Made by a program: the position numbers and the translations under genes. A stretch of 64,000 nucleotides of DNA from positions 5,724 through 69,723 of the forward strand of contig CAYODY010000001.1 in the NCBI GenBank assembly GCA_964402965.1. Reading direction: 5' to 3'. Each line of letters opens with the position of its first letter. Positions within the stretch are counted from its first letter, which is position 1. This document shows positions 6,768 to 55,499 of the stretch, piece after piece. Origin of the DNA: an uncultured Candidatus Saccharibacteria bacterium. GTDB lineage: Bacteria; Patescibacteriota; Doudnabacteria; UBA920. The notes below the pieces were generated by a model. That model ran no database searches. It saw only the letters and a list, made by a program, of their open reading frames with translations, and was not told where the DNA came from.

Positions 6768-6816
6768 TATTTCCTTAGTCAATACTTCATTAGATTTTAC
6801 TATTTTCCGCATATTT

Positions 6817-6840: not shown

Positions 6841-6871
6841 GTGCTATTATTTAATTATATACACAGCTATT

Positions 6872-6900
6872 GACTTATATGCATTTTTATGTTATATTAT
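6872..6900 (+). promoter_or_regulatory. sigma70-like promoter upstream of the GC-rich island gene
   Basis: TTGACT, a 17-nt spacer (tatatgcatttttatgt), then TATATT. The leader to the ATG at 7117 is about 215 nt. Confidence 0.5.
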
Positions 6901-7116
6901 TGGGTCATAGTTGAGTTTGGTGAGAAAACTGTACTCACAACCTATGGCTGATAGATTTATGTCCATCACCCTGAAATATTAACTTAGTCAGGGCTTTGGT
7001 GGACAATGATCTGTCTAATCAATATCAAACTGATAGTTAGCAGAAACTTTAGTAGGTTTGAACAATTGTTGTTTGAGTCGTTACTAAAGTACACAATTCC
7101 TGAGGAGGATAAAAAG

Positions 7117-20965: not shown

Positions 20966-22066
20966 ATGATTATCGGAATTGAAGCAGAACGAGCAAATAA
21001 CAAATACAAAACTGGCGTTGAGCACTATGTAAAAGAGCTAATTTTAGAGTTGGCAAAAATTGATTCTAAGAATCAATACATTTTGTACCTTCGAACTAAA
21101 CCAGAAGAATGGTTTTTAGCTTTACCTAAAAATTTTACTGTGAAAGTGCTGCCATTTCCAATTTTTTGGACCCAGCTTCGTTTAAGTTGGGAGATGTTGT
21201 GGAATGCTCCAGATGTATTGTTTGTTCCTGCATCTACTCTCCCTCTGATTCACCCAAAGAGTGTTTATACAGAACATGATGTTGCATGGATCTATTTTCC
21301 AGAAATTTTCACTTGGTACATGAGACAATTTCATAGAATTTTTTCAGCACTGGCACGAAATGGCGCTACAAAAATTATCTCAATTTCTGAGTCTACAAAA
21401 AAAGATTTAGTTGAGCACTATAAAATTAGTCCTGCGAAAATTGCAGTTGTGCAACATGGTTATACAAAGACACAAAATATACCAGACGAACTTTCTAAAG
21501 AGGTGGAAACAAAGTTGCCCTCGGAATATCTATTATTCCTTTCTACTTTACAACCACGAAAAAATCTTGAATTACTCATAGATGCGTTTCGTGAATTTAA
21601 AAATGAACATCCAGAATTTCCACATAAACTAGTAGTTGTTGGTCAACCAGGTTGGAAATTTGAATCAATCTTGAAAAAAATTGAAGAAAACAACGACATT
21701 GTAGTGTACTTGGGACGGATAGCAGATAACGACCGATGGCCTGTATATAAAAGAGCAAAACTCTTTATTCATCCAAGTTTGTACGAAGGTTTTGGTATGT
21801 GGATACTTGAAGCATTTGAGTGTGGTGTGCCTGTTGCGGTTTCTGGAACGTCTAGTTTGCCAGAAGTTGGAGGAAACGCTTCGTTGTATTTTGATCCGCA
21901 TAGTAAAGATGAAATGAAAGCAGTAATACTTCGTGTATTGCAAAATCCAGAGCTATCTCAAGAAATGATTGCTAAAGGTAAACAACAGCTTGCAAAATTT
22001 AGTTGGGAAAAGTGCGCTCAAGAAACATTGGCAGTTTTAGAAGAAGTCGGAAAAAAGGAAAAATAA
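20966..22066 (+). CDS. GT4-family glycosyltransferase (GT-B)
   Basis: The C-terminal motif is LYEGFGMWILEAFECGVPVAVSGTSSLPEV (the E-x7-E region of GT4 retaining transferases); 366 aa. Confidence 0.8.
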   Translation: MIIGIEAERANNKYKTGVEHYVKELILELAKIDSKNQYILYLRTKPEEWFLALPKNFTVKVLPFPIFWTQLRLSWEMLWNAPDVLFVPASTLPLIHPKSVYTEHDVAWIYFPEIFTWYMRQFHRIFSALARNGATKIISISESTKKDLVEHYKISPAKIAVVQHGYTKTQNIPDELSKEVETKLPSEYLLFLSTLQPRKNLELLIDAFREFKNEHPEFPHKLVVVGQPGWKFESILKKIEENNDIVVYLGRIADNDRWPVYKRAKLFIHPSLYEGFGMWILEAFECGVPVAVSGTSSLPEVGGNASLYFDPHSKDEMKAVILRVLQNPELSQEMIAKGKQQLAKFSWEKCAQETLAVLEEVGKKEK

Positions 22067-38000: not shown

Positions 38001-39318
38001 CCGTTGTTACAACGATGCTCTAAATGGGGATAACCTAGAATTCATAAACTTAGAAGGTGATTTGCCAGCAAATGTTTACTGTATTGCATACAACATTGAA
38101 CAAATAGTGCCTTGTGAAGTTACTCCTATTTACGCGGTAAGTGGTGCAGCAACACAATTCCTTGGATTAAAAGAAGGTTCTGCTCCAACTGATTTGAAAA
38201 ACCCAGCAGATTATTCTGGTGGTTCAGCAGGTGCTGTCCCTGTAACTCCAACTGGTTATGCAGGAGCATGGGATGGTTCGGCTTTAGATCCTATTATGAC
38301 TGCCTTACCTGGAGCAGTTTACGTGAGCAATGACACGGTACAACCAACCTTTGGTGGTGGTGCAGGTCACGATGGTTCAGTGGATTCATGGAGACTGTTC
38401 AGCGATACCTTTACTATTCCAGCTGGTGCAACAGGAATATCTTCACCAAGTTTGCACTTTGCAGCGGATAATGAAGTTTCAGTATTCTTTGATGATGTCT
38501 TAATTGGTTCAAGCGCAAGCTTTGGTTCTGTAACCAGCGTTGCTCTTCCGTCACTAACACCAGGAACTCACACATTGAAGTTTGCTGTTAAGAATTACGC
38601 TTTTGACCAAACAAATAACCCAACAGGTGTTATCTATAAGTTAGATACAATTACATATGACTGTGATAGTCATGGCGACTCTCACCGCAACCTAGCTGGT
38701 ATGGTTTATTTGGATGAAGACCAGGATGAAACTAAAGATCCTGAAGAAAATCCAATAGAAGGTCTAACAGTTAAACTTATACGCGCTACTGCAGATGATG
38801 AAGATGAAGACTTGAATTTGGAAGAAGAAGAAATTGCTTCTGATGTCTCTGATGTAGATGGTAATTACTCATTTAGTGATGTAGCTGATGGATGTTATAT
38901 CCTACGTGAAGTCCCTGAATCTTACCAACAAACAGAACCTCCTGTAACACATGAGTATTATGTTAAAGTAGGGGATGCAGATTGTAACTTTAATCTAGTT
39001 ACTTTCGCAGACTACTTGTTTAAAACAGCTAACGCAGCTGACTCTTCTACAGTATTCGTTGCGTACACAGGACAACCACTAAACTTTGGAAACTTTTTGT
39101 CAGGTGGTTCTAATGGTGGTGGTTCAAGAGGCGGCTCTAGTGGAGGTTCTACTCCATTAAATCCACAAGTTTTGGGTGATACCACAACAGTACCTAGCGT
39201 ACTAGGAGCTACTACAGAGCTTCCTCGCACAGGTTCTCCAATCTCAGTACTATTCGTACTAATCACCCTGTTAAGTGGGGCAGTTTTGGCACCAAAAGTG
39301 CTTAAAATTACTCGTTAA
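35053..39318 (+). CDS. giant LPXTG-anchored surface adhesin (1421 aa) with Cys-rich and acidic repeats and Cna-B/SpaA-like modules
   Basis: An N-terminal signal/TM is present. There are DCNPDPCD-type Cys repeats (about 35.80-35.98 kb) and a DDKGDEDDKDDKDDKD acidic repeat (about 36.33-36.38 kb). Prealbumin-like Cna-B motifs are present (SDVDGNYSFSDVADGCYILREVPESYQQTEP; ...VTCTITNTF). A Gly/Ser linker precedes the sorting signal LPRTG (39220-39234), a hydrophobic stretch and the basic tail KVLKITR. Confidence 0.75.
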   Translation: MKYMNNYESSPRSVSSYGTQAKPSFRDLALKSAVFVTAFSMVFSVFMPIAKTAQANHDPFNGQVFVKENKNHKVDICHAPEGQGGAKYNQQNVSIDSIVKNNGHDSHSSDVIPPFHYKEKNNSQNVISYSGKNWNSLNEAIWNADCKVAKLTLLKKVQGGDALATSWTLNADGPVDLSGATGTSAVSNKTVPAAQYTLSETGPSGYSASNWECVNKSTQPVAVTGGNIVTLTDSSEVTCTITNTFIDVEIDPCLLDNIVNEDCNPDPCDELTKNLLTNQVMDCNPCDLESAVNNPDCNPDPCDPNIVASKHDSESNNENDNCPKPKKRYLVIKKVWQGFEGEAGPSNKGEIQVNVNSDLDEEECDYDKKGEFSCKIRFTEGTTVSIDEENIPAGWTVDQSTVGDIVPNCDEDSEDDNVGPFKLFGKKDDKGDEDDKDDKDDKDCTHTIVNVYKPAEPCGTELVANGNFELPEVKDGANWEVFPSGTPGMGWSVNWVRESKDSPVPANMELHEGVNGWLAHSSNQYAELDSDWGGPSSNQNGEDASVVMYQDLITVPGGTYTVSLWTSPRPGQGNAQNKTEVKMGSTLLDTIIEDGSSNSNTVWTKHTYSFVAEESMTRLSITDLGVGNTLGGFVDDVSVKQDCLSNVTICKYDNTETPLSNWNVLLKGDLLETVTVNSNSSTGANSVNALESGQDYLVEVSGTWQNRTFETVDASYTTPDSWSTVLPAPQGGYPDDLLETQINGNFVNWGPYSSGHKYQLTMAGNGSTANFRVFDGDANTNTQFPDWFGDNIGSLTVKIYPVYQGITGVSGCVTLENVPYNSYKLDEIMQAGWENQSGQNTTSVVDSSTETFNLVNKCTGEECRQTKPQLHLIKVVCDDFSDIQGNYSADEYDDTNGNYVHFNNYPEFNNVVKPVNPEEIPSSESGCETRSGWSFTLSSDQNQDQDVQTVTTGESGEYVGDLPESGVLWVSEVMQKGYDFGAIRCYNDALNGDNLEFINLEGDLPANVYCIAYNIEQIVPCEVTPIYAVSGAATQFLGLKEGSAPTDLKNPADYSGGSAGAVPVTPTGYAGAWDGSALDPIMTALPGAVYVSNDTVQPTFGGGAGHDGSVDSWRLFSDTFTIPAGATGISSPSLHFAADNEVSVFFDDVLIGSSASFGSVTSVALPSLTPGTHTLKFAVKNYAFDQTNNPTGVIYKLDTITYDCDSHGDSHRNLAGMVYLDEDQDETKDPEENPIEGLTVKLIRATADDEDEDLNLEEEEIASDVSDVDGNYSFSDVADGCYILREVPESYQQTEPPVTHEYYVKVGDADCNFNLVTFADYLFKTANAADSSTVFVAYTGQPLNFGNFLSGGSNGGGSRGGSSGGSTPLNPQVLGDTTTVPSVLGATTELPRTGSPISVLFVLITLLSGAVLAPKVLKITR

Positions 39319-39365
39319 ACAGGTTGGCATGCATTGAAGCATGAAACTTAGCTAAAACTTAAAAA

Positions 39366-39390
39366 GGGCCCCCTAGAGGGGCTCTTTTTT
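39366..39390 (+). terminator. rho-independent terminator after the adhesin gene
   Basis: GC-rich hairpin GGGCCCCC-tag-AGGGGCTC followed by T6. Confidence 0.6.
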
Positions 39391-39404
39391 GTTATACTAA
39401 AGAC

Positions 39405-40007
39405 ATGAAAACCTATTTTAAATACTTGGGGATTATACTCTTAGCTGTTGTTATTGTTTTCGTATTGCTAAATTTCGATTATTTTAAGAAACAACTGAGT
39501 TATATCTTAAGTAAACCTCAAACAAAACAAGACGACCAAGCGCTAAGTAATAGTGAGAATTTAAAAAGTATAATGGAGCAAAACTTCCTATCTATTCCTA
39601 GTTTAGATATAAAAGCTCCAATTAAATTTGTAACTCAAGCTAATGAAAAAGCTTTCCAAGAAGCTTTAATTGATGGTGTTGTTCAATTTCCGGGAACAGC
39701 TAAAGTTGGAACAGTTGGGAATACATATATTTTTGGTCATTCGTCAGACTTCGCTTTTAGTAAAGGAAAATATAAAACAGTGTTCGCACTACTACCAAGC
39801 ATAGACATAGGCGCGGAAATTATTGTTTCGGACGAATCTGGAAAGGCGTTTACGTATGAGGTGATTAAAAAATTTGTTGCAAGCAAGAAAGATGTGCATT
39901 TGCTGGACCAAAATACAAATGGTGAGAAAATTCTAACTGTTCAAACTTCGTACCCAATAGGAACTGCTTTACAGAGATATATTGTGGTTGCTAGGTTAAG
40001 AGAATAA
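39405..40007 (+). CDS. sortase-family paralogue with Ser at the catalytic-Cys position
   Basis: 200 aa with an N-terminal TM. It aligns with the sortase domain of 5325..6767. The motifs are VVQFPGTAKVGTVGNTYIFGHSS (His conserved), ILTVQTSYPIG (codon tcg where the paralogue has tgt in ALSTCWPIG) and LQRYIVVARL (Arg conserved). It lies immediately downstream of the LPRTG protein. Confidence 0.6.
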   Translation: MKTYFKYLGIILLAVVIVFVLLNFDYFKKQLSYILSKPQTKQDDQALSNSENLKSIMEQNFLSIPSLDIKAPIKFVTQANEKAFQEALIDGVVQFPGTAKVGTVGNTYIFGHSSDFAFSKGKYKTVFALLPSIDIGAEIIVSDESGKAFTYEVIKKFVASKKDVHLLDQNTNGEKILTVQTSYPIGTALQRYIVVARLRE

Positions 40008-42182: not shown

Positions 42183-43091
42183 ATGCTGCCTAAATTTCCA
42201 GTATTCAAAAAATTAGAACTTAGTGACCAAATAGACATCGAAAAAATTACATCAAAATATCAACCTTATTCCGATTTTGATTTTTTTAGTATGTGGTCTT
42301 GGGATGTACTTGGAACTTACAGGATTTCTGAGTTGAACGGGAATTTAGTAGTAGTACTTCTAGACCACTTTACAAATGATCCTGTCTACTCATTTATAGG
42401 TAATAATCAATCAGAAAAAACAATTAAGCAACTCTTCGCTTTTTTTGAAATTATTGATAACCCTACTCCTGTAATGAAATTAATCCCTGAAATTTCTCTC
42501 CAGGATGTAAACTTTAAAAAATACCTCATAGAAATTGATTTAAATAATTACGACTATGTTTATAGTACAATGGAGTTATCAACCTATGAAGGATCTAAAT
42601 TCAGCGGGAAAAGAAAATTATCGAATAGATTTTTTAAAAACCATAATAACGTTGAATTGAAATTGCATGATTTAAAATCAGATTTTGTTAAGTCTGAAAT
42701 AATTAATTTTTCAAAATATTGGAAAAGCCAAAAGACAACGGAAGTTGATGGGTTGGATTTACAAAAAGAATTGACTGCGATTCAGAGGTTTTTGGATGCT
42801 AATTTCGAAGAATCGTTTTGCACTCTTTTGTATGCTGATCAAAAAATGGTTGGGTATCAATTATTTACTCCGTCAACGCACGGATATGCAATTTGCCACT
42901 TCGGTAAATCAGACGTTAATTTTAATGGGGCCTTTGAATATATGATGAGTGAAAGTTGCAAATTGCTGGTTAATAAAAATATACAATTCCTTAATACAGA
43001 AGAAGATTTGGGAATACAGCAGCTGAGGTTTACCAAAAATTCATATCATCCAATTACACTACTCAGGAAATACACAATCAAAACCTTGTAA
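42183..43091 (+). CDS. hypothetical protein, possibly DUF2156-like (MprF C-terminal aminoacyl-transferase-like fold)
   Basis: 302 aa, soluble. The N-terminal motif YSDFDFFSMWSWDV recalls the DUF2156/LPG_synthase_C family. The assignment is from memory and weak. Confidence 0.35.
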   Translation: MLPKFPVFKKLELSDQIDIEKITSKYQPYSDFDFFSMWSWDVLGTYRISELNGNLVVVLLDHFTNDPVYSFIGNNQSEKTIKQLFAFFEIIDNPTPVMKLIPEISLQDVNFKKYLIEIDLNNYDYVYSTMELSTYEGSKFSGKRKLSNRFFKNHNNVELKLHDLKSDFVKSEIINFSKYWKSQKTTEVDGLDLQKELTAIQRFLDANFEESFCTLLYADQKMVGYQLFTPSTHGYAICHFGKSDVNFNGAFEYMMSESCKLLVNKNIQFLNTEEDLGIQQLRFTKNSYHPITLLRKYTIKTL

Positions 43092-46643: not shown

Positions 46644-47384
46644 ATGGAAGAGCAATACATTCTACATTATCAACCGATGGTTACTTTGTCTGACTATAGA
46701 ATAGTTGGGGCAGAGGCGTTGGTGCGTCGTGTTGAAGGTAAAAAAATAATTTCACCTAGCGACTTTATTCCAGATGCTGAGCGCACTGGGAAAATTATTT
46801 CCATTGGACAATGGGTGTTAGCAGATGTGTGTCGTCAAATTAACGAGTGGCAGGGGAGCGGAGTCGAGCCTGTTCCTATAGCGATAAACATTTCTGCACG
46901 TGAACTTTTCCATACCAATTTTACTGAAAATGTTTTGGAAGTTGTGAAGGCTGCAAAAGTAGATCCAAAACTAATTAAATTTGAGTTAACAGAAACTTTC
47001 CCAGTAGAAGAACTGGAGCGTGCCGATAAAATTCTTAAGCAACTAAAAAAACAAGGTTTTACCTTGCTTATAGATGATTTTGGTACCGGGTACGCGTCTT
47101 TAAAATATTTAACTTATTTACCGTTTGATGGTGTAAAGATAGACCAGACTTTTGTTGCAACACTCCCAGATAGTTTGCCAGATGCCGCTATTATTTCTGC
47201 AGTTTGCGGATTAGCGAGACAATTAAAGTTAAGAGTCATTGCTGAAGGTGTCGATAAAAAGTCACAGTTAAATTTCTTGCGCGCTGTTGGCTGTAATTCG
47301 GCACAAGGTAACTATTTTTGCAAAGCTGTTTCAGCAGAAGCTCTTACTAAATTATTGCAAGGGAAGCGCAAATTGCCTGCTTAG
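46644..47384 (+). CDS. stand-alone EAL-domain protein (putative c-di-GMP phosphodiesterase)
   Basis: Motifs EALVRR, ELTE, LLIDDFGTGYASLKYL, DGVKIDQTFV; 246 aa with no GGDEF domain. Confidence 0.8.
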   Translation: MEEQYILHYQPMVTLSDYRIVGAEALVRRVEGKKIISPSDFIPDAERTGKIISIGQWVLADVCRQINEWQGSGVEPVPIAINISARELFHTNFTENVLEVVKAAKVDPKLIKFELTETFPVEELERADKILKQLKKQGFTLLIDDFGTGYASLKYLTYLPFDGVKIDQTFVATLPDSLPDAAIISAVCGLARQLKLRVIAEGVDKKSQLNFLRAVGCNSAQGNYFCKAVSAEALTKLLQGKRKLPA

Positions 47385-47428: not shown

Positions 47429-48355
47429 TTAACTTAGCTTAAAGTCTTTATATCCTCGCAAAAAGTCGTCCATTTTGGTCGGCTTTTTTCCTTCTAATTG
47501 AACAGACATTAGTTCAAGGTAAGTGTCTTTTGCACATGGGATTATTGCTCGGTTTGCTGGGTCACGCGGTTCGTCTTGTGCAACTACACGGCATTCCAAA
47601 ATTTTTAACTGTTTTTCAGGCTCGCTTTCAACTGGTGAACATTTTGTATAGATCCCAGGCCACAACGCAAATGCACGCCACATGTTGTATATCTCTTGTG
47701 CTGTTTTCGCAGTAAAGTCTACAAAACCATCTTCTTTTTTAATTAACTTGGTGGAAGTAGCTTCGTCATGAATTTGTGTTCGTGGTTCAATGCCGTTGTC
47801 TGCGTACACGGGAAGTAGATCAATTAAGATATGCGCAGAAAGATATGAAAGTTTTTCTGCTAGAGTTAGAAATGTATCTGTTGGTTCAATGTCTATTGCA
47901 CCTTGAGCAATTATGTCACCATGGTCAACAAGCTCGTCAAGAATGAAAATAGTTGTGCCGGTTGTAGTTTCTCCGTTGAGTAAGGCATATTGAATTGGTG
48001 CAGCTCCTCTGTATTTTGGTAGTAACGAAAAATGCACGTTAATTGTTTTTAACGGTGGAATATCTATGAGTTCTAGTGGAAGTATTTTGCCATAAGAGAC
48101 GACAATAAAAATATCTGCGTTGAGTTCTTTTAGATGCTGAATAAACTCCGCATTGTTCTTTACTTTTTCGGGTTTAGATATTTTTAACTTGAGCTCATTT
48201 GCACGGTCGGAGATTGCAGATGGCGTAAGAATTTGTTTACGTCCAACGAGCGCGTCCGGACTGGTGACAACTTCTAAAATTTCGTGCCCCGCTTCGTGTA
48301 ACGCAGTTAGGATTGGTGCTCCAACAATAGATGTTCCAAAGAAAACTATTTTCAT
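47429..48355 (-). CDS. fmt: methionyl-tRNA formyltransferase
   Basis: MKIVFFGTS ... INVHFSLLPKYRGAAPIQ (the formyltransferase N-H-D catalytic region); 308 aa. Confidence 0.9.
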   Translation of the reverse strand: MKIVFFGTSIVGAPILTALHEAGHEILEVVTSPDALVGRKQILTPSAISDRANELKLKISKPEKVKNNAEFIQHLKELNADIFIVVSYGKILPLELIDIPPLKTINVHFSLLPKYRGAAPIQYALLNGETTTGTTIFILDELVDHGDIIAQGAIDIEPTDTFLTLAEKLSYLSAHILIDLLPVYADNGIEPRTQIHDEATSTKLIKKEDGFVDFTAKTAQEIYNMWRAFALWPGIYTKCSPVESEPEKQLKILECRVVAQDEPRDPANRAIIPCAKDTYLELMSVQLEGKKPTKMDDFLRGYKDFKLS

Positions 48356-48382: not shown

Positions 48383-48949
48383 TTAAACCTTCAACTTTTT
48401 AACAAGCGCGCGGAAAATCTCCGCTTCGTATTGGCAGTCTACAATTGCATTGTGTCTGTTTTCAATTTTCTTAACACCCAATGCTGTACCAACATCTTCC
48501 AAAGTAAATCCAGCAAACTTTTTAGGATTAGTTAATTTCTTGTGTTTCGCCATGTAGAAGTAACAAAGAGGCCATAAATTAAATGTGTATTGCAAAGTAA
48601 ATGGGTATTTCATTTTTACAGAACGATATGCGGCAGGGAAAAAGACAATATCTAAATTTCCGCCGTACATTGCAGGGGTTACATCTGAACCAAAAGTTTT
48701 ATTAAACTTTTTTAGTGCTGTTGCCATGCTTGGAGCATTTTTTAAATCTTCTGCTGAAATCTTATTTACAGCCATGGCTTCGGGGTCGCGTTTTGCCCAT
48801 CGTTGAGGTTTAACAAAAGTAGAAAAAGACTTTTTCTCTTTCAAAGTTTTACGGTCAAGCAAAATTGCCGCAATTTGAATAATCTCGTGCTTGGTTACAT
48901 CTAGTCCTGTCATTTCTAGATCGAACAGTAAAATATCTTTTTTGAACAT
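48383..48949 (-). CDS. orn: oligoribonuclease-like DEDDh 3'-5' exonuclease
   Basis: Exo I is LFDLEMTGLD (compare Orn WIDLEMTGLD), Exo II is GGNLDIVFF and Exo III is RHNAIVDCQYE (H-x-A-x-x-D). 188 aa, Orn-sized. Confidence 0.65.
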   Translation of the reverse strand: MFKKDILLFDLEMTGLDVTKHEIIQIAAILLDRKTLKEKKSFSTFVKPQRWAKRDPEAMAVNKISAEDLKNAPSMATALKKFNKTFGSDVTPAMYGGNLDIVFFPAAYRSVKMKYPFTLQYTFNLWPLCYFYMAKHKKLTNPKKFAGFTLEDVGTALGVKKIENRHNAIVDCQYEAEIFRALVKKLKV

Positions 48950-49024: not shown

Positions 49025-49558
49025 TTAGCCAGCTACAATGCGTTTAAATACTTCCGCGGCTAGCCGTGCTTTTTCTAACGCATTGCTTCTATTTTTAATT
49101 TTCAAATTAAAATGTTGAAACAGTGTTTCTAGAGTAGGCATTTTTTTAATGCCATAGTGCAAGGTGTAAACATATCCCAATGACCATAGATCTAGAATAT
49201 GCGCATCGTACTCGTAAGGGATGAAAGTTTTTTTAAAAGCTTGTCTTAAAAATTGCACATTCTGAACTGTGTGAGTTGCTAGCAGGGGAGTGTATCCAAA
49301 TTTAGTTGTGAAATTTTTTATTACTTCGTGCAGTTTTGGACTTGTTCTTAGGACATCAAATGGCACGTTCAAAAGTTGAGCGTGTTGTTCTAATGTTTGA
49401 TCAATAAAACTAACTTTAACATAAGAGTTAAAAAAATCTTTTTCTAAAAGATTATCTTTGTCGAGTAATATTGCAGAAAGTTGAACTATTACGTCGCGAT
49501 CTAAATTGGACCCAGTTGTTTCTACTTGGAAAAATAGTATGTCTTTTATGAATTTCAT
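49025..49558 (-). CDS. catalytically degenerate oligoribonuclease-like paralogue
   Basis: Same fold and length, and a paralogue of 48383..48949. The DEDDh residues are replaced. Exo I is FFQVETTG (D to Q), Exo II is VQNVQFL (D to N) and Exo III is NRSNALEKA (H to S, D to K). Confidence 0.55.
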   Translation of the reverse strand: MKFIKDILFFQVETTGSNLDRDVIVQLSAILLDKDNLLEKDFFNSYVKVSFIDQTLEQHAQLLNVPFDVLRTSPKLHEVIKNFTTKFGYTPLLATHTVQNVQFLRQAFKKTFIPYEYDAHILDLWSLGYVYTLHYGIKKMPTLETLFQHFNLKIKNRSNALEKARLAAEVFKRIVAG

Positions 49559-50052
49559 TTTTTTTCTGCGTATTTTGGTAATAGTTCTTCACCTGTAGTT
49601 ATCTTTTCGAACTTATCTATTATTAAGATGTTATTTAAATGATCTATTTCGTGCTGTAACACTCGCGCAAGGAAGGTATCGTCAGTAATGGTAAACTTTT
49701 CTCCATTAGTATTGTAAGCTTCTACGGTAATTTTCTTTGGGCGTTTTACTGTTCCAAAAACACCTGGGAGTGACAAGCATCCTTCTTCCATTTCAGTCAT
49801 TACTTTTGAACTCTTTGTAATTTTAGGATTGATGATGGGAAAAGCAGGGAGTCCAGCATCTTCTAAATAAATTAGAGCCATATCCAAACTTTTGCTAACT
49901 TGAGTACACGCAAGACCAACACCATTCGCAGAAATTACGGTGTCGTGCATGTTTTTTATTAATCGTAAGATGTCTTTCTTGAGGGGGAACTTTAACTCCT
50001 CAACTGGTTTGCGCAGCACTTGCGCTGGTAGTTTTGCAATTGGTAATATCAT
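49555..50052 (-). CDS. def: peptide deformylase
   Basis: GVGLACTQV, EGCLS and QHEIDHL are the three PDF motifs. Confidence 0.9.
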   Translation of the reverse strand: MILPIAKLPAQVLRKPVEELKFPLKKDILRLIKNMHDTVISANGVGLACTQVSKSLDMALIYLEDAGLPAFPIINPKITKSSKVMTEMEEGCLSLPGVFGTVKRPKKITVEAYNTNGEKFTITDDTFLARVLQHEIDHLNNILIIDKFEKITTGEELLPKYAEKK

Positions 50053-50377: not shown

Positions 50378-51232
50378 ATGACTACTAAATCAATCTTATT
50401 AGCAATCATAGTTTTAGGTATATTTATTGGAATTATGGAAAAAGTTCCACAGCGTTCTTGGGATTGGTTTTCTAACACTTCTATTGGTAACCAAGTTTTA
50501 AATTACAAATCAGGGAATCAGGTTTTACCAGACCCACTACGCGGACTTATTGACCCAAATATTAAGAGTCAATTAACCATGGAAGGCGTGGTGAAATATA
50601 CAAATTTACAACGTGGTACAAATGGACAGTCTACACTAAAGATAAATGCAAAATTAAATGCTGCTGCAATGGCAAAAATTGATGATCTTTTTGCTCAGCA
50701 ATATTTTGAACACAAATCTCCAAATGGTAATACTCCTGCAGATATAATTAAGGCACAGGGCTACGAGTATATTGTAGTTGGAGAAAATTTGGCGTTAGGA
50801 AATTTTAAAGACGACGAAACTTTAGTACAAGCATGGATGGATAGTCCAGGGCATCGTGCGAATATTTTAAATCACAAGTATCAAGAAATTGGTGTAGCAG
50901 TAAAAAAAGGAATGTTTGAAGGTAACGAAGTTTGGTTGGCTGTGCAAGAGTTTGGTGCTCCACTTTCTGCATGCCCTCCAGCAAATCAAAGTATAAAAAC
51001 TCAACTAGATGCAAACAAGTCTTTACTGGCAGAGTACGAAACTACTTTAAACAGACAAAAATCTGATTTAGATAGCAATAGTTTTGCAAGTCCTGCTGAG
51101 TACAACAGAGCGGTCACACAATACAATATTTTAGTAAAAAAGACTCGTGAATTAAGCGAGAGAACCAAAGAGTTGGTGGATCAATATAACGATTCTGTAA
51201 ATAATTTTAATAGTTGTCTAGAAAGTAATTAG
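50378..51232 (+). CDS. CAP/SCP (PR-1/YkwD-like) domain protein with N-terminal TM and C-terminal coiled coil
   Basis: Start at ATG 50378 (MTTKSILLAIIVLGIF), downstream of a TATAAT box at 50363. The CAP motifs are GENLALGNFKDDETLVQAWMDSPGHRANILNHKYQEIGVAV. Confidence 0.65.
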   Translation: MTTKSILLAIIVLGIFIGIMEKVPQRSWDWFSNTSIGNQVLNYKSGNQVLPDPLRGLIDPNIKSQLTMEGVVKYTNLQRGTNGQSTLKINAKLNAAAMAKIDDLFAQQYFEHKSPNGNTPADIIKAQGYEYIVVGENLALGNFKDDETLVQAWMDSPGHRANILNHKYQEIGVAVKKGMFEGNEVWLAVQEFGAPLSACPPANQSIKTQLDANKSLLAEYETTLNRQKSDLDSNSFASPAEYNRAVTQYNILVKKTRELSERTKELVDQYNDSVNNFNSCLESN

Positions 51233-51245: not shown

Positions 51246-52565
51246 ATGATAGATATTGCAGGTTTAAAAATTAGTAATATAACAAAGCGCGAGTTACTAG
51301 AACAAGTCCGTGAACGTGTCGCTAAGAAGCAAAAAACTTTTGTAACAACACCGTACTCAGAGTTTTTGTACGCGAGCATGCGTAACCCAGAAGTCCGGGA
51401 AATGTTAAATAAGTCAGATTTCGCAATACCAGATGGGATTGGGATTCTTTGGGCTCATCTATTTTTGTCTCGTCCTTTTAGTTTTAAGAATTTCTACCTA
51501 AAAATTATCCAGTCGTGGTTTCAGGTGGTGTGGACAGGGGCATCTATTATTTTCAAACCGAGTTTGCTGTATAGAGAGATTCCAGAAAAAATTGTTGGAG
51601 CAGATTTAATTTGGGATTTGTGTGCAATGGCAGAACGCGAGAATTTTTCTGTGTTTTTATTAGGTGGCTTTGGTCATACTACGGAAATTGCAAAACAGAA
51701 ACTTTTACAAAAATTTCCTAAACTGCAAATTGCAGGGACTTCAAATAAGAATCCTAAAGATGTTGAAGTTTTGGATCAAATCAATTCTGTTAAACCAGAT
51801 TTGCTTTTTGTAGCTTTCGGGCCAATAAAACAAGAGAAGTGGATTGCGGAAAACTTACAAAATATTTCAGCGAGTTTTGCAATTGGTTTAGGAGGAACTT
51901 TTGACTACATAGCAGGAACTAAAAAAGCACCACCAAAATTTATCCGTCGTATTGGATTGGAATGGTTGTATCGGTTAGTTACTCAACCAAGTAGGTTAGC
52001 AAGAATTTACAAAGCGGTTGTTGGTTTAATAATTTCGCTCATGCGACACAAAGTTTTTTCTTCAATGCCTTTTCGAAAAAATGTAATAGCGGTTGTTCTA
52101 AATGATGAGGGTAAAATTTTTATTGCCCAACGGAATCCCAGAGATCCGTACTTAGTAAAAACAGCAGGTGGAATTATGCTTGAGAAGTATGCAAATTATT
52201 GGCAGTTCGCTCGTGGTGAAGCTGAAAAAAATGAAACCTTAGAGGAAACAGGTAGACGTGAGTTGATGGAAGAAACTGGAATTACATCTGTTGAGCTAAA
52301 AAAAATTTCTAAACAAACTAGCTCGTATCTTTGGAACAATTCATTAAGACCTTTATTTGGGAATATATACAAAAAAAAGGGACAAAATCAAAACATTGTC
52401 TATTTTAATTTTGTTGGAGAAGATTCAGAAATCAAGTTAGACCAAAGGGAGTTAGTCAATTATAAATGGGTAAAAATGAGTGATTTAGATTCAACTTTGC
52501 ACCCGGAACAAGCAGACGTAATTCGTATAATAAAAGAAGATCTGGGTGTTGAAAATCAGGCTTAA
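51246..52565 (+). CDS. fusion protein: WecB/TagA/CpsF-family glycosyltransferase (GT26) plus C-terminal NUDIX hydrolase
   Basis: GT26 motifs FAIPDGIGILWA, FLLGGFG and GGTFDY in the first ~260 aa. The Nudix box GEAEKNETLEETGRRELMEETGI (G-x5-E-x7-REUxEExGU) follows in the last ~150 aa. Confidence 0.7.
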   Translation: MIDIAGLKISNITKRELLEQVRERVAKKQKTFVTTPYSEFLYASMRNPEVREMLNKSDFAIPDGIGILWAHLFLSRPFSFKNFYLKIIQSWFQVVWTGASIIFKPSLLYREIPEKIVGADLIWDLCAMAERENFSVFLLGGFGHTTEIAKQKLLQKFPKLQIAGTSNKNPKDVEVLDQINSVKPDLLFVAFGPIKQEKWIAENLQNISASFAIGLGGTFDYIAGTKKAPPKFIRRIGLEWLYRLVTQPSRLARIYKAVVGLIISLMRHKVFSSMPFRKNVIAVVLNDEGKIFIAQRNPRDPYLVKTAGGIMLEKYANYWQFARGEAEKNETLEETGRRELMEETGITSVELKKISKQTSSYLWNNSLRPLFGNIYKKKGQNQNIVYFNFVGEDSEIKLDQRELVNYKWVKMSDLDSTLHPEQADVIRIIKEDLGVENQA

Positions 52566-52598
52566 ACTTGCTATAATTAAGCTCTAAATTAGAAATAG

Positions 52599-54128
52599 AT
52601 GAATATTACAAATCCAAAAATCCGCACAAGATTTGCCCCAAGCCCAACTGGTTATGTTCACGTTGGTAGCTTGCGCACATCACTTTTTAATTATTTGTTC
52701 GCAAAGAATTTAGGCGGAGTAACTGTTCTTCGTATTGAAGATACAGACCAGACTCGTTTAGTAGAAGGTGCGGCTGAAAATTTAGTTTCAGTTTTGGGAA
52801 AACTCGGAATAACTTTTGATGAAGGCCCAACTTTAAATGAAGCAGGGGAGTTAGTTGAAGTTGGGGAGTTTGGACCATATACACAATCTAAACGTTTAGA
52901 TATCTATAAAAAATACACAGAAGAACTACTAGAAAAAAAAGCAGGCTACTATTGTTTCTGTTCATCTGAACGACTGGATGAACTTCGTAAAGAACAAACT
53001 GCTTTAAAGAAGCCTCCAATGTACGACAGGCATTGTCGTAATCTTTCAGAAGATGAAATTTCTGCAAAGCAAGTAGAGTTTAAGGAAGCTGGTAAAAATC
53101 CAGTAATACGCCAAGCGAATCCGTTAGAAGGTGAAACCATTGTGAACGATTTAGTATATGGCGAAATAAAATACGACAATGCATTGTTAGATGACCAAGT
53201 ACTAATTAAGTCAGATGGGTTTCCTACTTACCACTTTGCAGTTGTAATTGACGATCATCTTATGCAAATTTCTCACGTAATTCGTGCAGAAGAATGGATT
53301 CCTTCTACTCCAAAACATGTTTTGCTTTACAAGGCATTTGGCTGGGAAGCACCGCAGTTCGCACATATGCCGTTAATTTTAAATCCAGATAAGAGTAAAT
53401 TGTCTAAACGCCAAGGAGATGTAGCTGTAGAAGATTTCTTGAACAAAGGTTACTTACCGCAAGCGTTGGTGAACTTTGTCGCATTTTTAGGATGGAACCC
53501 AAAAACAGAACAAGAACTTTTTTCAATGGAAGAGCTTGTAGCTCAATTTGATTTGGCAAAAGTAAACAAGTCCAGCGCAGTATTTGATGTGAATAAATTA
53601 GACTGGATGAATAGTGAATACATTCGTGCTATGTCCAACTCAGAACTTGTTAATGCTTGTAAACCGTATTGGAAAACTTCTTGGGATGTGTTAATGATAG
53701 AAGGCGAAAAATTCCCTGAAAACTATTTAGAAGCAATTTGTGCTTTAGAAAAAGATAGACTTAAAAAACTTTCAGAAATCGCAGAAAGAACTAACTACTT
53801 CTTCGCAACTCCAGATTACGATGGACAGATTTTAGTTTGGAAAAAATCTACACCTGAAATAACAAAGCAAAGTTTGGCATTGCTTCAAGATTTAGTTCGA
53901 ATTACCGATTTAGAAACTTTACAGTCTATAGAAAAGTTTGAAAAAACTGTGAAAGACTTTATTGCAGAACATGAGTTAGATAACGGTTCAGTATTGTGGC
54001 CACTGAGAGTTGCTATGACAGGACTTGAAAAGAGTCCAAACCCATTTGAAGTTTGCGCTACAATTGCTTTGGGCTGGGGAAAAGATGAAGTTCTATTCCG
54101 TCTAGAAAAAGCAATTAGTCTTTTGTAA
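52599..54128 (+). CDS. gltX: glutamate--tRNA ligase
   Basis: FAPSPTGYVHVGSLRTSLFNY carries the HIGH-class motif, and KLSKRQ is the KMSKS motif; 509 aa. Confidence 0.9.
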   Translation: MNITNPKIRTRFAPSPTGYVHVGSLRTSLFNYLFAKNLGGVTVLRIEDTDQTRLVEGAAENLVSVLGKLGITFDEGPTLNEAGELVEVGEFGPYTQSKRLDIYKKYTEELLEKKAGYYCFCSSERLDELRKEQTALKKPPMYDRHCRNLSEDEISAKQVEFKEAGKNPVIRQANPLEGETIVNDLVYGEIKYDNALLDDQVLIKSDGFPTYHFAVVIDDHLMQISHVIRAEEWIPSTPKHVLLYKAFGWEAPQFAHMPLILNPDKSKLSKRQGDVAVEDFLNKGYLPQALVNFVAFLGWNPKTEQELFSMEELVAQFDLAKVNKSSAVFDVNKLDWMNSEYIRAMSNSELVNACKPYWKTSWDVLMIEGEKFPENYLEAICALEKDRLKKLSEIAERTNYFFATPDYDGQILVWKKSTPEITKQSLALLQDLVRITDLETLQSIEKFEKTVKDFIAEHELDNGSVLWPLRVAMTGLEKSPNPFEVCATIALGWGKDEVLFRLEKAISLL

Positions 54129-54194: not shown

Positions 54195-55499
54195 ATGATT
54201 GGTAAAAACTCTGAAACCAAAACTGTTTTTAAGCTTCTCGTATCTGCCGGAATAATTGGCTTATTTGGGCTATTTTTGGTTGTTGGAAAATTCGTTGTGT
54301 TCAATGATGCTCAAGCTGTGGTAATAAACCCAAGCATAGACTTAAACGATAGACTTCAGAAAATTCAAGCACAAATCAACGCTTACCAGCAATCCATTAG
54401 TCAAACCAAAAAGCAAGGAGCTAGTCTAGCAAACGAAATTAGCATGTACGATAACCAAATTGCATCTTTGGAGTTACAAATGCAGGCTAATTCTACTCAA
54501 ACAGAAGACACAACATTGCAAATTAAAGAGTTGCAAACTCAAATAGACCGTCGTCGTGCAGAAATAGATCAAAATAAAGTTATTCTAGGTTCATTAATTC
54601 GCCAGCTTTCTGAGTTAGACGAAAACTCGTTCTTGCACATAGGTCTTGGTACAGATAATTTCTCATCATTCTTAGATCAAATTCAGTACAACCGAAGTGT
54701 GCAAGATCAGGTATATTCTTTAGTCGTCAAAATTAAAGAAATTAAGGCGAAATTAGAAGTTCAGCAAGATGATTTAAAGAAACAACTCGAAAAACTAAAG
54801 CAACTTGGTGAGCAGTTAAACATTGCAGAGAAAGCTTTAGCAGATGAGCGTTCTTCTAAGTCAGAATTATTAGCAAAGACAAAAGGAACAGAGAAGAACT
54901 ATCAGAAATTACTACAAACAAGTAAGGGTGAGGCAGATAAAATCCAACAAGAACTTTACGATCTTGACCAAGCGGCACGTGGACGTGCTGGAAACCCAAG
55001 CATCTCTGCTAAGAAAGGTGTGTTGGCTTGGCCAATGGATGGTGTGTTAACTCAAGGTTATGGAAATACTGGGTTCACTTCTCTAGGTTACAATTTCCAC
55101 AATGGAATAGATTTAGCCGCCCCTGCTGGGAAGCCAATCTATGCAGCAGCAGATGGTACTGTTGCAAACTGTAATTCATCTCAAGCTGCCTATGGAAACT
55201 GGTGTACTATCTATCACTCTGTTTCCACAAATGATGGAATTCGAGATATCGTTACGTTATATGCTCACATGAGCTCTATTAAAGTTTCCCCAGGATTGCA
55301 AGTAAAAATGGGTGATTTAATTGGGTACGAAGGTAATTCTGGAAACACAACTCGTTTGCTATATGGACCAGATAGGGGATACCATCTTCACTTTACTGTT
55401 TTTGACCGTAAAGGTTATGCCGTAACAAAAGGTAAATATGGTGACTACTATGTTCCAAGCGGAGTAACATATAATCCACTTAATTTCTTAGGTAAATAA
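54195..55499 (+). CDS. M23 (LytM) peptidoglycan endopeptidase with N-terminal TM and coiled coil (EnvC-like)
   Basis: A TM anchor, then a ~250-aa coiled coil, then HNGIDLAAPAGKPIYAAADGTV ... YAHMS ... GYHLHF (the M23 HxxxD / HxH zinc site). Confidence 0.8.
   Translation: MIGKNSETKTVFKLLVSAGIIGLFGLFLVVGKFVVFNDAQAVVINPSIDLNDRLQKIQAQINAYQQSISQTKKQGASLANEISMYDNQIASLELQMQANSTQTEDTTLQIKELQTQIDRRRAEIDQNKVILGSLIRQLSELDENSFLHIGLGTDNFSSFLDQIQYNRSVQDQVYSLVVKIKEIKAKLEVQQDDLKKQLEKLKQLGEQLNIAEKALADERSSKSELLAKTKGTEKNYQKLLQTSKGEADKIQQELYDLDQAARGRAGNPSISAKKGVLAWPMDGVLTQGYGNTGFTSLGYNFHNGIDLAAPAGKPIYAAADGTVANCNSSQAAYGNWCTIYHSVSTNDGIRDIVTLYAHMSSIKVSPGLQVKMGDLIGYEGNSGNTTRLLYGPDRGYHLHFTVFDRKGYAVTKGKYGDYYVPSGVTYNPLNFLGK

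Follow-up and report, generated by a model that had tools for sequence, protein, structure and literature searches.

Why would a bacterium make a glycosyltransferase of family GT26 and a Nudix hydrolase as a single polypeptide, and what does the Nudix half do there? The question is raised by one open reading frame (51246..52565, + strand, ATG start, 439 amino acids plus stop) in the window, by which we mean the whole 64,000-nucleotide stretch of DNA that was analyzed. A sequence-only reading had described this frame as a complete GT26 domain joined to a C-terminal Nudix domain with a canonical Nudix box, and had suggested that the Nudix enzyme could hydrolyze the NDP set free in the transfer reaction, or proof-read and regulate the NDP-sugar donor. 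It had proposed a Pfam scan and a search for the same fusion in other genomes, and had warned that a frameshift or stop might be hidden between the domains or that the C-terminal part might not be Nudix. The architecture was borne out. The frame has no internal stop and no frameshift, and both domains score above their Pfam cutoffs: Glyco_tran_WecG (PF03808) at residues 95-255 (E = 2.3e-48, 164.6 bits versus a cutoff of 27.4) and NUDIX (PF00293) at residues 276-426 (E = 2.2e-15, 57.3 bits versus a cutoff of 21.1), so that the C-terminal part is indeed Nudix. The Nudix box (GEAEKNETLEETGRRELMEETGI, residues 324-346, 52215..52283), read from the sequence, matches GX5EX7REUXEEXGU exactly. All features given below lie on the + strand.

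A fusion of this kind could be the product of mis-assembly or of a frameshift, and P0002 demonstrates that short-read assembly can produce a chimera at just this junction. However, the identical 439-amino-acid product is found on contigs from at least four independent samples and assemblies, and both Pfam domains are present in all 120 of the best matches to the window protein, which make up our homolog survey (46 to 78% identity, about 420 to 510 amino acids; database search). Because of these two results, a hidden frameshift or assembly error is excluded. Full-length fusion homologs number in the hundreds and diverge to about 30% identity; clustered at 90% identity they fall into more than 120 groups, and at 50% into dozens. 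The nearest named relatives of the window protein belong to the Doudnabacteria (49 to 52% identity), and GT26 and an RppH-type Nudix are fused or adjacent in Uhr-, Falkow-, Jackson-, Magasanik-, and Doudnabacteria, that is, in at least five CPR lineages. The GT26-Nudix fusion is a genuine conserved gene of ultra-small Patescibacteria (CPR). That it is an artifact, or that its Nudix domain has become a non-catalytic ligand-binding module, is scarcely credible. With respect to the second idea, among the metal-binding and catalytic residues of the Nudix box (G324, E330, R338, E339, E342, and E343), four (G324, R338, E339, and E343) are invariant and the other two, E330 and E342, reach 90% conservation or more across 115 sequences, a pattern that, at the level of sequence, contradicts a degenerate Nudix half.

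The architecture had been thought to be uncharacterized, and we found no description of it either: a literature search for the combination of WecG/PF03808 with Nudix/PF00293, or of a CPR Nudix with a glycosyltransferase, returned no relevant paper. In public annotations of the homologs, the glycosyltransferase half is named and the Nudix half is omitted. Because pipelines name only the WecB/TagA/CpsF glycosyltransferase half, an RppH-type activity of Patescibacteria is hidden, and reconstructions of their metabolism and RNA decay would wrongly mark that activity as absent.

The GT26 half is complete. T. italicus TagA (7MPK) aligns with it from residue 2 to residue 269, catalytic C-terminal tail included (E = 3.5e-32), and the half scores 129 bits against TIGR00696 (cutoff of 69). 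In the AlphaFold model of the fusion (pLDDT 95.6), the core (residues 1-224, 51246..51917) has the TagA-like, GT-E-like Rossmann-type fold (Foldseek against 7N41, 5WB4, and 5WFG, target-normalized TM of 0.88 to 0.91, E of about 5e-14), and by the 7MPK alignment the tail (residues 225-273, 51918..52064) corresponds to the membrane-binding lid, without which the active site is incomplete. The catalytic base of TagA, D65, is D63 here (nucleotides 51432-51434), and E239/W240, R243, R250, and R253 of the tail correspond to E210/W211, R214, R221, and R224 of TagA, where the three arginines are essential and clamp the UDP diphosphate (PMC8784642). D63, E239, W240, R243, R250, and R253 are invariant in the alignment (n = 115 sequences); in the core, T35, E39, G118, D120, E197, and W199 are conserved as well. 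Of the two determinants of ManNAc specificity in TagA, N39 and Q167 (PMC8784642), the latter is retained as Q196, while the former is replaced by Y37, which is invariant across the clade of fusions that carry the insertion described below; asparagine is kept in the unfused and Jacksonbacteria forms. Given that TagA N39 is a tyrosine here, the donor may be a sugar other than ManNAc. The TarA equivalog model NF041710 scores 138.2 bits against its cutoff of 350 (NCBIfam), and of the TagA pathway partners, neither TagO/WecA nor the UDP-GlcNAc 2-epimerase MnaA was found among the approximately 40 window proteins scanned (64 kb of genome).

The same clade has a second peculiarity in the GT26 core, an insertion of about 34 amino acids (PFSFKNFYLKIIQSWFQVVWTGASIIFKPSLLYR, residues ~77-110, 51474..51575; alignments and DSSP of the model) that is rich in aromatic and hydrophobic residues. 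It is missing in TagA, in the Jacksonbacteria fusion, and in the unfused GT26 proteins of Uhr- and Falkowbacteria. In 108 of 110 insertion-bearing fusions, it is accompanied by the change from N39 to Y37. DSSP of the model predicts helices at residues 83-103 and 105-109, the first of them with a KD value of +1.13, 6 aromatics among its 21 residues, and a muH of 0.39. The insertion is probably an interfacial membrane anchor.

The Nudix half (residues 274-439, 52065..52562) was placed by profile searches against PDB, NCBIfam models, Foldseek, and residue mapping. Its best profile matches, which cover the whole domain, are lupin Ap4A hydrolase (1F3Y, 2e-31) and E. coli RppH (6e-24). MutT/NudI comes next (1e-11), behind by about 12 orders of magnitude, and GDP-mannose hydrolase (1RYA/2I8T) is matched at an E of about 1e-6. 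Four of the five RppH NCBIfam models are matched by all 27 family members and the fifth by 26 of them; NF011963, which served as a test for nucleotide-sugar Nudix enzymes, is touched by 2 of the 27. RppH structures also top the Foldseek ranking of the C-terminal half (TM of about 0.70 to 0.77). At the residue level, R277, N279, W319, Y361, G379-Q380-x-Q382, E402, and W408 are the counterparts of E. coli RppH R8, N10, W33, Y77, G94-Q95-x-Q97, E120, and W126. Taken by its sequence profile and predicted fold, the Nudix half is an RppH/NudH or plant-type Ap4A hydrolase domain and not one of the nucleotide-sugar hydrolase type, which the profile ranking (2e-31 and 6e-24 versus 1e-6) rules out. The interpretation given by the sequence-only reading thus stands in part: a complete GT26 domain is indeed joined to a catalytically intact Nudix domain, but profile and predicted fold put that domain outside the nucleotide-sugar hydrolase lineages.

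Could an RppH-type domain have been re-tooled for NDP-sugars after it was fused? Nothing in the sequences indicates this, because the signature residues of RppH are equally conserved in free-standing relatives and in fusions: the equivalents of R8, W33, Q37, G38, the Nudix box, Y77, Q95, and E120 show the same conservation in solo proteins (n = 56), insertion-less fusions (n = 17), and insertion-bearing fusions (n = 44). A C-terminal "HPxR" motif is likewise common to the fusions and their free-standing CPR sisters. Nevertheless, the substrate preference of the domain may differ from that of E. coli RppH, because four of its features depart from that enzyme. First, the window domain falls short of the RppH equivalog cutoffs (best NCBIfam model NF001938, 71.5 bits versus 116). 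Second, the base pedestal of RppH, V137/F139/K140, is replaced by H419/E421/Q422, in a C-terminal helix whose alignment is less certain than that of the core. Third, the position of RppH Q37 is occupied by R323, although glutamine stands there in 41 of the 44 fusions with the insertion and in 16 of the 17 without it. Fourth, a loop expansion (NPRDPYLVKTAGGIMLEKYAN, residues 297-317, 52134..52196; alignments) between R296 and Y318 inserts roughly 15 amino acids into the base-cleft region; it is modeled with the lowest confidence (pLDDT 77-89 for residues 301-320). The residues that flank this loop are the equivalents of RppH R27 and S32, which line the nucleobase cleft, and R27 is, together with Y77 and Q95, among the phosphate and sugar contacts of RppH (PMC7144940).

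How the two halves came together can be read from relatives in which they are still separate. In Uhrbacteria (L089, JACQSD010000026.1), a GT26 gene (251 amino acids) is followed by a Nudix gene (145 amino acids), gltX, and M23, and in Falkowbacteria (L084/L085) separate genes for GT26 (247 amino acids) and Nudix (148 amino acids) are 47 bp apart; across unfused pairs, the spacer is 47 to 75 bp. When the fusion is aligned with these separate genes, its junction falls at S-M-P-F (residues 273-276, 52062..52073): S272-S273 line up with the C-terminal "SS" of free-standing GT26, and at M274 (nucleotides 52065-52067) the separate Nudix frames of L089 (Uhrbacteria) and L085 (Falkowbacteria) have their start codon. 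Fused Nudix domains group together in a rough NJ tree and are nested in solo RppH-like proteins. As these alignments have it, the fusion arose from adjacent GT26 and Nudix genes through loss of a stop codon and a short spacer. The closest short Nudix matches (P0134 and P0153) were considered as stand-alone homologs and proved to be pieces of fusions cut off at contig ends; the true stand-alone sisters are more distant relatives only.

Such an origin would also suit a neutral event, in which loss of a stop codon joined unrelated neighbors in a compact genome and the halves work independently, the product persisting because it is harmless and the linkage bringing no benefit. The short spacers of the unfused pairs, the tight gene packing of fusion-bearing genomes, and a Nudix sequence that did not change upon fusion all agree with this. 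We nevertheless regard it as rather improbable, since the fusion persists in homologs diverged to about 30% identity and across the many clusters counted above, the junction is short, conserved, and confidently modeled (pLDDT 98), and one clade later gained insertions in both halves. In the model, about four residues separate the last helix of the GT26 tail from the first Nudix strand, the fused protein is predicted to be one rigid body, and a pTM of 0.91 suggests an evolved interface between the halves.

The closeness of the halves is one argument for a catalytic partnership. The Nudix domain would have been recruited to hydrolyze the UDP released by GT26 (UDP to UMP plus Pi) or to remove UDP-sugar donor that is surplus or wrong. 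In this way, product inhibition would be relieved and the transfer at the membrane driven forward. The Nudix domain begins about four residues past the tail whose arginines in TagA clamp UDP, in what is modeled as a rigid body; GT26 and this type of Nudix are adjacent or fused in all five lineages named above; and the base-cleft pedestal and loop are unlike those of E. coli RppH. Hydrolysis of NDPs is also chemically plausible, because E. coli RppH cleaves UDP and sugar-PP-U caps in vitro, albeit slowly: it hydrolyzes UDP and other NDPs, nearly to completion at pH 8 (PMC7144940), and can take off Glc-, Gal-, and GlcNAc-PP-U caps (PMC12541447). At physiological pH, however, RppH is slow on both NDPs and sugar caps, and the lineage of the Nudix half is that of RppH/Ap4A hydrolases rather than any NDP-sugar hydrolase lineage. 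Its signature residues and HPxR motif are the same in free-standing relatives that have no GT26 neighbor and adjoin RecJ-like genes instead. Moreover, when about 70 GT26 loci (Firmicutes, Proteobacteria, and other CPR) were scanned in six frames with HMMs, none had a Nudix of this type next to GT26, which rules out a general GT26-Nudix operon partnership; the sole nearby Nudix among those loci (L025) resembles MutT and is encoded on the other strand. The adjacency itself may be historical, because GT26-gltX-M23 is a synteny block conserved across CPR in its own right, with or without Nudix. Taken together, we consider a primarily catalytic coupling doubtful, though still a live rival.

In the window, this block continues downstream of the fusion with gltX, encoding glutamyl-tRNA synthetase (52599..54128; gene calls and synteny), and with a gene for a coiled-coil M23 peptidase, a cell-wall hydrolase (54195..55499). 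A strong promoter-like site lies before gltX (52549-52577). Upstream, a gene for a 284-amino-acid CAP/SCP-domain protein (50378..51232; Pfam PF00188) ends 13 bp before the fusion gene, no promoter-like site was seen in this gap, and the two genes are probably co-transcribed. Other local genes serve RNA and translation (fmt, def, two RNase T-like exonucleases, and gltX) and do not form a glycan cluster; a lipid-linked glycan pathway (rmlB/D, three GT2, GT4, Wzx, and a Wzy-like gene) is encoded in the window, 27 to 50 kb upstream. As a side observation, a candidate tRNA-Gly(CCC) lies within an ORF in Jacksonbacteria.

These RNA-related neighbors are one reason to entertain a role in RNA processing, in which the GT26 half would recognize, or perhaps even use as donor, a sugar-PP-U-RNA cap, leaving pp-RNA that the RppH half would convert to p-RNA. 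The protein would then be a dedicated two-step decapping enzyme that ties the UDP-sugar pool to mRNA decay. UDP-sugar caps are found on up to 30 to 40% of U-initiated mRNA 5' ends in E. coli and are RppH resistant (PMC12541447), the predominant natural substrate of RppH is diphosphorylated RNA (PMC6061855), and in the fusion a domain that binds UDP-sugars and an RppH domain make up one modeled rigid body. Still, this idea is entirely speculative, and we give it very little credence: the GT26 half has kept its lipid-acceptor machinery (the D63 base, R243, and the membrane-binding tail) and has gained a putative membrane-seeking helix besides, and these features favor an ordinary lipid-linked acceptor.

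We return to a reading in which each half keeps its own chemistry, and put about as much trust as doubt in it. Both halves are complete and keep all residues known to be necessary for catalysis in their families. From sequence and model, we propose a bifunctional, membrane-peripheral enzyme. Its GT26 half would rest against the membrane on the cytoplasmic side, anchored through the amphipathic C-terminal tail and, in the insertion-bearing clade, also through the extra aromatic helix. With a UDP-sugar as donor, this half would glycosylate a polyprenyl-diphosphate-linked acceptor that belongs to a glycopolymer of the wall or cell surface. Its Nudix half would retain the ancestral RppH/NudH (ApnA-type) chemistry, the Mg2+-dependent cleavage of a 5'-terminal di- or triphosphate or of Np(n)N. 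The fusion would chiefly tether and stabilize the Nudix domain on the glycosyltransferase scaffold at the membrane, in an arrangement analogous to that of E. coli RppH, which is bound and stimulated by DapF, an enzyme of cell-wall and amino-acid biosynthesis (PMC6061855). Hydrolysis of the UDP released next door would be a plausible extra benefit, not the primary function. This tethering proposal predicts that fusion-bearing organisms have no second RppH. Against it, the persistent adjacency or fusion in at least five CPR lineages and the rigid predicted interface would also fit catalytic coupling.

A bolder conjecture is that the fusion is a dedicated coupler of the envelope's UDP-sugar economy to nucleotide and RNA 5'-end metabolism, as either a two-step remover of sugar caps or an obligatory UDP-destroying glycosyltransferase with Nudix-gated transfer. 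We hold this to be decidedly improbable; if true, its enzymatic logic would be new, and the link between wall and mRNA decay in RppH-DapF would have a parallel that evolved independently. The fusion gives a hint that wall synthesis is connected with the turnover of nucleotides or RNA, and the protein offers a system in which to study Nudix relief of UDP product inhibition or action on sugar-capped RNA. In addition, how a fusion becomes integrated structurally can be followed along a natural series that runs from the unfused pair through the fusion without the insertion, of which Magasanikbacteria MBI5732268.1 is an example, to the fusion that bears it. New here are the RppH/NudH assignment, the two-gene origin, the aromatic insertion with its change from N39 to Y37, the invariant catalytic residues of both halves, and the predicted single rigid body.

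Among known systems, TagA/TarA (5WB4, 5WFG, 7MPK, and 7N41), the N-acetylglucosaminyl-diphospho-undecaprenol N-acetyl-beta-D-mannosaminyltransferase, shares its fold with residues 1-273 of the fusion, together with the catalytic Asp, the three essential tail arginines plus E/W, and the membrane-binding C-terminal tail. The two are about 27% identical, and the window protein differs in having Y37, the aromatic insertion of about 34 amino acids, and a Nudix domain after the tail; unlike TagA/TarA, its gene lies outside any teichoic-acid gene cluster. For residues 274-439, the best structural match is E. coli RppH (NudH/YgdP; 4S2W-4S2Y, 6VCK-6VCR, and 7SP3), an RNA 5' pyrophosphohydrolase and Ap5A hydrolase, with which the window domain shares equivalents of the YRxNV N-terminus, WQFPQGG, the Nudix box, Y77, GQxQ, and E120. 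Identity is about 22%, the V137/F139/K140 pedestal is replaced by H/E/(R or Q), and RppH is free and cytosolic, whereas the window Nudix is covalently fused to a predicted membrane enzyme. The Ap4A hydrolase of Lupinus angustifolius (1F3Y/1JKN), of the plant/bacterial NudH type, is the top profile match (residues 13-159 of 165), but it is eukaryotic and stand-alone and retains the V-E-F-K pedestal motif that is absent from the CPR subfamily.

Closer by descent are the unfused pairs of Uhrbacteria (L089) and Falkowbacteria (L085, PFAP01000002.1), whose GT26 proteins are 27 to 32% and whose Nudix proteins are 30 to 33% identical to the window protein. They have the order GT26-Nudix-gltX-M23 as in the window and retain N39, and the Falkowbacteria Nudix (PIR94600.1) is annotated as "RNA pyrophosphohydrolase." The analogy behind the NDP-sugar idea is GDP-mannose mannosyl hydrolase (Gmm/WcaH/NudD), a Nudix enzyme whose gene is linked to glycan synthesis; WcaH sits in the colanic-acid cluster and is the classic Nudix enzyme tied to polysaccharide synthesis. 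It is, however, unfused and belongs to another, distant Nudix lineage (profile E of about 1e-6 versus 1e-31 for Ap4A hydrolase). Conceptually nearest to the GT26-RppH fusion is E. coli RppH-DapF (5YGU, 6D13, and 6D1Q), in which an RppH-type Nudix is joined to a wall-precursor enzyme and RppH is potentiated (PMC6061855). That complex differs in being non-covalent and without membrane association, and its partner is diaminopimelate epimerase, not a glycosyltransferase. The covalent and predictedly rigid union described here would be a second, independent case of an RppH-type enzyme tied to wall biosynthesis, which suggests that the link is functional and not a quirk of E. coli.

The ORF at 51246..52565 (+) has an ATG start, 439 codons and zero internal stops. 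A sequence-only reading had taken it for a single ORF joining a complete GT26 domain to a Nudix domain, and both the uninterrupted reading frame and a Pfam scan confirm this. Residues 95-255 match PF03808 (Glyco_tran_WecG; E 2.3e-48, 164.6 bits vs. a cutoff of 27.4), and the C-terminal part is a Nudix domain (PF00293, residues 276-426; E 2.2e-15, 57.3 bits vs. 21.1) whose Nudix box, already quoted in that reading (residues 324-346), fits GX5EX7REUXEEXGU exactly. The same 439-aa product, 100% identical, is found on contigs of at least four independent samples and assemblies. Moreover, both Pfam domains are present in all of the best 120 matches (46-78% identity, about 420-510 aa) that were taken from a search of a 5.8-billion-protein database with the whole protein. 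Given the identical product in at least four assemblies and the two-domain homologs, a hidden frameshift or mis-assembly, about which the reading had been cautious, is excluded, and we consider an artefact or a dead domain extremely improbable.

The GT26 half (residues 1-273) aligns over residues 2-269 with TagA of Thermoanaerobacter italicus (7MPK; E 3.5e-32), and its AlphaFold model superimposes on TagA/TarA crystal structures with TM values of 0.88-0.91 (normalised to the target). In TagA, D65 probably serves as the general base, three arginines of the C-terminal tail (R214, R221 and R224) are essential, and E210/W211 are conserved (PMC8784642). The corresponding residues of the window protein (D63, R243, R250, R253 and E239/W240) do not vary among 115 family members. 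Because the catalytic and tail residues are conserved, this half is a complete inverting GT26 enzyme, membrane-binding tail included, and almost certainly active. Its identity as a TagA equivalog is ruled out, since the protein scores 138 bits with the NCBIfam TarA model (cutoff 350) and N39, one of the two ManNAc-specificity determinants of TagA (PMC8784642), is replaced by a tyrosine (Y37) that is invariant throughout the window's clade. The other determinant, Q167, is retained as Q196.

Unlike TagA, the window protein also carries a clade-specific insertion of about 34 aa in the GT26 core (residues ~77-110, PFSFKNFYLKIIQSWFQVVWTGASIIFKPSLLYR), which alignments show to be absent from TagA, from the Jacksonbacteria fusion and from unfused GT26 relatives. 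In the predicted model, the insertion forms a helix at 83-103, followed by another at 105-109. The first helix is hydrophobic and rich in aromatic residues (KD +1.13, 6/21 aromatic, muH 0.39), and from this composition we infer an extra interfacial membrane anchor. The insertion and the N39-to-Tyr change co-occur: tyrosine is found at the N39 position in 108 of the 110 insertion-bearing forms, and asparagine in all 6 insertion-less forms. A GT26 protein without a Nudix domain, encoded at 5977-6906 of a locus (L004) from a MAG labelled Candidatus Saccharibacteria, has at this position an insertion that is larger still and strongly hydrophobic (…NINLFIYNLIIYICMLFIFPLAYIAKLP…). Therefore, the site appears to be a hot spot of membrane-anchoring elements, independent of the fusion. 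In L004 the GT26 gene is followed by gltX, whose ORF is interrupted by a masked run in the record, and then by a coiled-coil wall hydrolase.

The sequence-only reading had linked the Nudix half (residues 274-439) to nucleotide-sugar turnover, but the domain does not come from a nucleotide-sugar hydrolase lineage. A profile built from 27 Nudix halves and searched against all PDB sequences matched lupin Ap4A hydrolase (1F3Y, E 2e-31) and E. coli RppH (E 6e-24), each over the full domain. MutT, NudI and animal Ap4A hydrolases followed from about 1e-11, and GDP-mannose mannosyl hydrolase reached only about 1e-6, a ranking that rules out a nucleotide-sugar hydrolase lineage. Of the five NCBIfam RppH models, four hit all 27 Nudix halves and one hits 26, though the scores stay below the equivalog cutoff (71.5 bits vs. 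116 for the window's Nudix domain). Independently, Foldseek places E. coli RppH structures at the top for this half (TM about 0.70-0.77). In RppH, the nucleobase cleft consists of R27, S32, V137, F139 and K140, and the sugar-phosphate is contacted by R27, Y77, Q95 and K140 (PMC7144940). The alignment shows conservation of R27, Y77 and Q95 (R296, Y361 and Q380 in the window protein), as well as of the RppH signatures R8, W33, G38 and E120 (R277, W319, G324 and E402). The Nudix half is thus an RppH/NudH-type pyrophosphohydrolase whose catalytic centre is intact, and the active sites of both halves are conserved. In contrast, the V137/F139/K140 pedestal of RppH corresponds to H419/E421/Q422 (family consensus H-P-E-R), the equivalent of RppH Q37 is R323 (the window protein reads FARGE vs. 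FPQGG in the family), and the loop between the R27 and S32 equivalents is expanded (residues 297-317). Given these three changes, the base preference may differ from that of E. coli RppH.

The fusion family contains two Nudix flavours (alignment columns 401-610). One, with 'RNPxDPYL...' after beta2, is present in the window protein and in homologs P0003, P0008 and P0019; the other, ending '...AVLAELAxIQV', is present in P0005, P0014, P0026 and P0032. The near-universal FPQGG is changed to FARGE, FVRGG or FPRGG in the window's sub-clade. Homolog P0002 (435 aa, from a 3.5-kb Logan contig) is identical to the window protein over the GT26 half (residues 1-272) and changes at the exact domain junction to a different, P0005-like Nudix variant ('YWQFPQGGLDDGE...'). 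The switch is due either to recombination where the two genes once met or to chimeric assembly of short reads.

An AlphaFold2 model of the window protein, with a 115-sequence alignment as input, has a mean pLDDT of 95.6, a pTM of 0.91 and a pLDDT of 98 across the junction. The gap between the last tail helix (248-272) and the first Nudix strand (277-285) is only about four residues long (273-276). A pTM this high in a protein of 270 + 165 residues implies that the two domains have a defined arrangement, and the architecture is predicted to be rigid. Foldseek found no solved structure spanning both halves (query-normalised TM <= 0.42).

When the Nudix half was searched against 1.84 billion cluster representatives, 777 matched at E <= 1e-3, 69 of them at E <= 1e-10. 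GT26 is also present in 49 of the best 148 matches, about 17 of them without the insertion. The closest 'short' matches are contig-end fragments of fusions, which rules them out as stand-alone proteins. The same fusion, which the sequence-only reading had proposed to seek in other genomes, is indeed present in Candidatus Doudnabacteria (L001 and L002; 49-52% identity to the window protein), Jacksonbacteria (L003; 30%), Magasanikbacteria (P0157) and members of the 'Patescibacteria group'; none of the named fusion-bearing matches comes from a non-CPR organism. The window itself has about 37% GC and is most similar to Doudnabacteria-like genomes. In the Jacksonbacteria locus (MHJU01000012.1), ARAGORN predicts a tRNA-Gly(CCC) gene at 6800-6874 (+) inside the fusion ORF (5986-7278). 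It lies in frame, on the sense strand, within the Nudix-coding half, and adds 25-26 aa (GGCSSVVECLLPKQKIAGSIPVTRS) to the beta1-beta2 turn. Homolog P0223 has the same insert at residues ~361-385 (24 of 25 residues identical), though the two fusion proteins are only 58% identical overall, and such stronger conservation than in the flanks is what a working tRNA gene embedded in a coding sequence would be expected to show. Both halves of the fusion come from well-known families, and their combination can be seen in precomputed domain tables, while public annotations ignore the Nudix half. We found no paper on the GT26-Nudix architecture in the searchable literature, in agreement with the earlier view of it as uncharacterised.

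The true free-standing sisters of the Nudix half are found in Candidatus Falkowbacteria (PIR94600.1, annotated 'RNA pyrophosphohydrolase') and Candidatus Uhrbacteria. The Uhrbacteria locus (L089) reads ClpB, GT26 (251 aa), Nudix (145 aa), gltX and M23 peptidase, and in two Falkowbacteria assemblies (L084/L085) GT26 (247 aa) and Nudix (148 aa) are separated by 47 bp, with gltX and M23 further downstream. The window has the same order and neighbours (gltX at 52599-54128, M23 at 54195-55499), but with one fused gene in place of two. In the alignment, free GT26 proteins end in '...SS*' and free Nudix proteins start with 'M..(F/Y)RPNV', and the window junction reads '...KVFSS-M274-PFRKNV'. This comparison indicates that the fusion arose by loss of the stop codon and spacer, with the old start codon persisting as M274 (nt 52065-52067). 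In a rough neighbour-joining tree, all 61 sampled fused Nudix domains form one clade among solo RppH-like proteins, and insertion-bearing forms are nested among insertion-less ones. Events thus likely began with two adjacent genes, which then fused; the GT26 insertion and the N39-to-Tyr change came last, and together. GT26-gltX-(wall hydrolase) synteny also occurs in CPR lineages without any Nudix (L004, L025), and none of about 70 GT26 loci outside the fusion clade has an adjacent Nudix of this RppH-like type. A neutral fusion of this gene pair seems to us rather unlikely. The fusion itself is real, ancient and structurally integrated, and the RppH-type identity of its Nudix half had not been anticipated.

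Upstream of the fusion, on the opposite strand, is a housekeeping neighbourhood of fmt (47429-48355), two tandem paralogs of RNase T/DEDD-type exonucleases (48383-48949 and 49025-49558), def (49555-50052) and a small ORF; three other loci (L081-L083) have the same block, with proteins about 50% identical. A CAP-domain gene ends 13 bp 5′ of the fusion gene and probably shares its transcript, and there are strong promoter-like sites ahead of gltX and the M23 gene. A surface-glycan gene set (249-23788) comprises rmlD (249-1091), rmlB (1649-2662), three GT2 genes (3195-4361, 4417-5292 and 8210-8935), a sortase-domain protein (5325-6767), a subtilase (9023-10885), a Wzx-like flippase (12803-14242), a GT4 (20966-22066) and a Wzy/O-antigen-ligase-like protein (22073-23788), interspersed with several large ORFs that lack a Pfam match (7006-8046, 10946-12718 and 14770-16164). 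By their annotation, rmlD/rmlB, the GT2 and GT4 genes and the Wzx- and Wzy-like genes constitute a lipid-linked glycan pathway, which makes a polyprenyl-PP-linked acceptor for the GT26 half plausible. A 1421-aa SpaA/SdrD-type (prealbumin-fold) surface protein directly followed by a 200-aa sortase (35053-40007) looks like a pilin/adhesin-sortase pair; together with the other sortase, it is typical of monoderm envelopes. Two stand-alone domain proteins are encoded at 42183-43091 and 46644-47384, an LPG_synthase_C protein (MprF C-terminal, aminoacyl-PG synthase-like) and an EAL-domain protein, and a GGDEF-EAL protein lies near their relatives in L083.

Three other free-standing Nudix relatives share a conserved PilB-like ATPase - Nudix - RecJ-like context. 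In L086-L088 and a GCA_041447055.1 locus, an 'HPxR'-subfamily Nudix lies between a PilB-like ATPase (T2SSE) and, after a small ORF in some, a RecJ-like (DHH/DHHA1) gene. In two of the three lineages, the Nudix gene begins 8-13 nt before the ATPase gene ends. The arrangement may represent a pairing of RppH with a 5′-3′ exonuclease.

We hypothesize, with about even confidence, that the fusion is a bifunctional membrane-peripheral enzyme. The GT26 half would extend a lipid-PP-linked glycan from a UDP-sugar, a donor that may not be ManNAc, and the Nudix half would still act on RNA 5′ ends and/or Np(n)N with RppH/NudH chemistry. The main effect of the fusion would be to tether and stabilise the Nudix half on the GT26 scaffold. 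This explanation draws on the very strong RppH/Ap4A affinity in the profile, NCBIfam and Foldseek searches, on RppH signatures equally conserved in solo and fused forms, and on the RecJ-linked context of other solo relatives. Alternatively, as first proposed from the sequence, the Nudix half could hydrolyse the UDP released by GT26, or the donor. UDP hydrolysis by E. coli RppH (PMC7144940), slow removal of sugar-PP-U caps by RppH (PMC12541447) and the fact that at least five CPR lineages have kept this Nudix type paired with a UDP-sugar enzyme fit this possibility, which we nonetheless hold to be doubtful. A device for processing sugar-capped RNA is a far-fetched reading of the fusion. The tethered RppH-type enzyme that we favor has a precedent in E. 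coli, where DapF, an enzyme of cell-wall and amino-acid biosynthesis, binds and potentiates RppH (PMC6061855). The GT26-Nudix fusion is an independent parallel, in which an RppH-type Nudix is again tied to a cell-wall-related enzyme.
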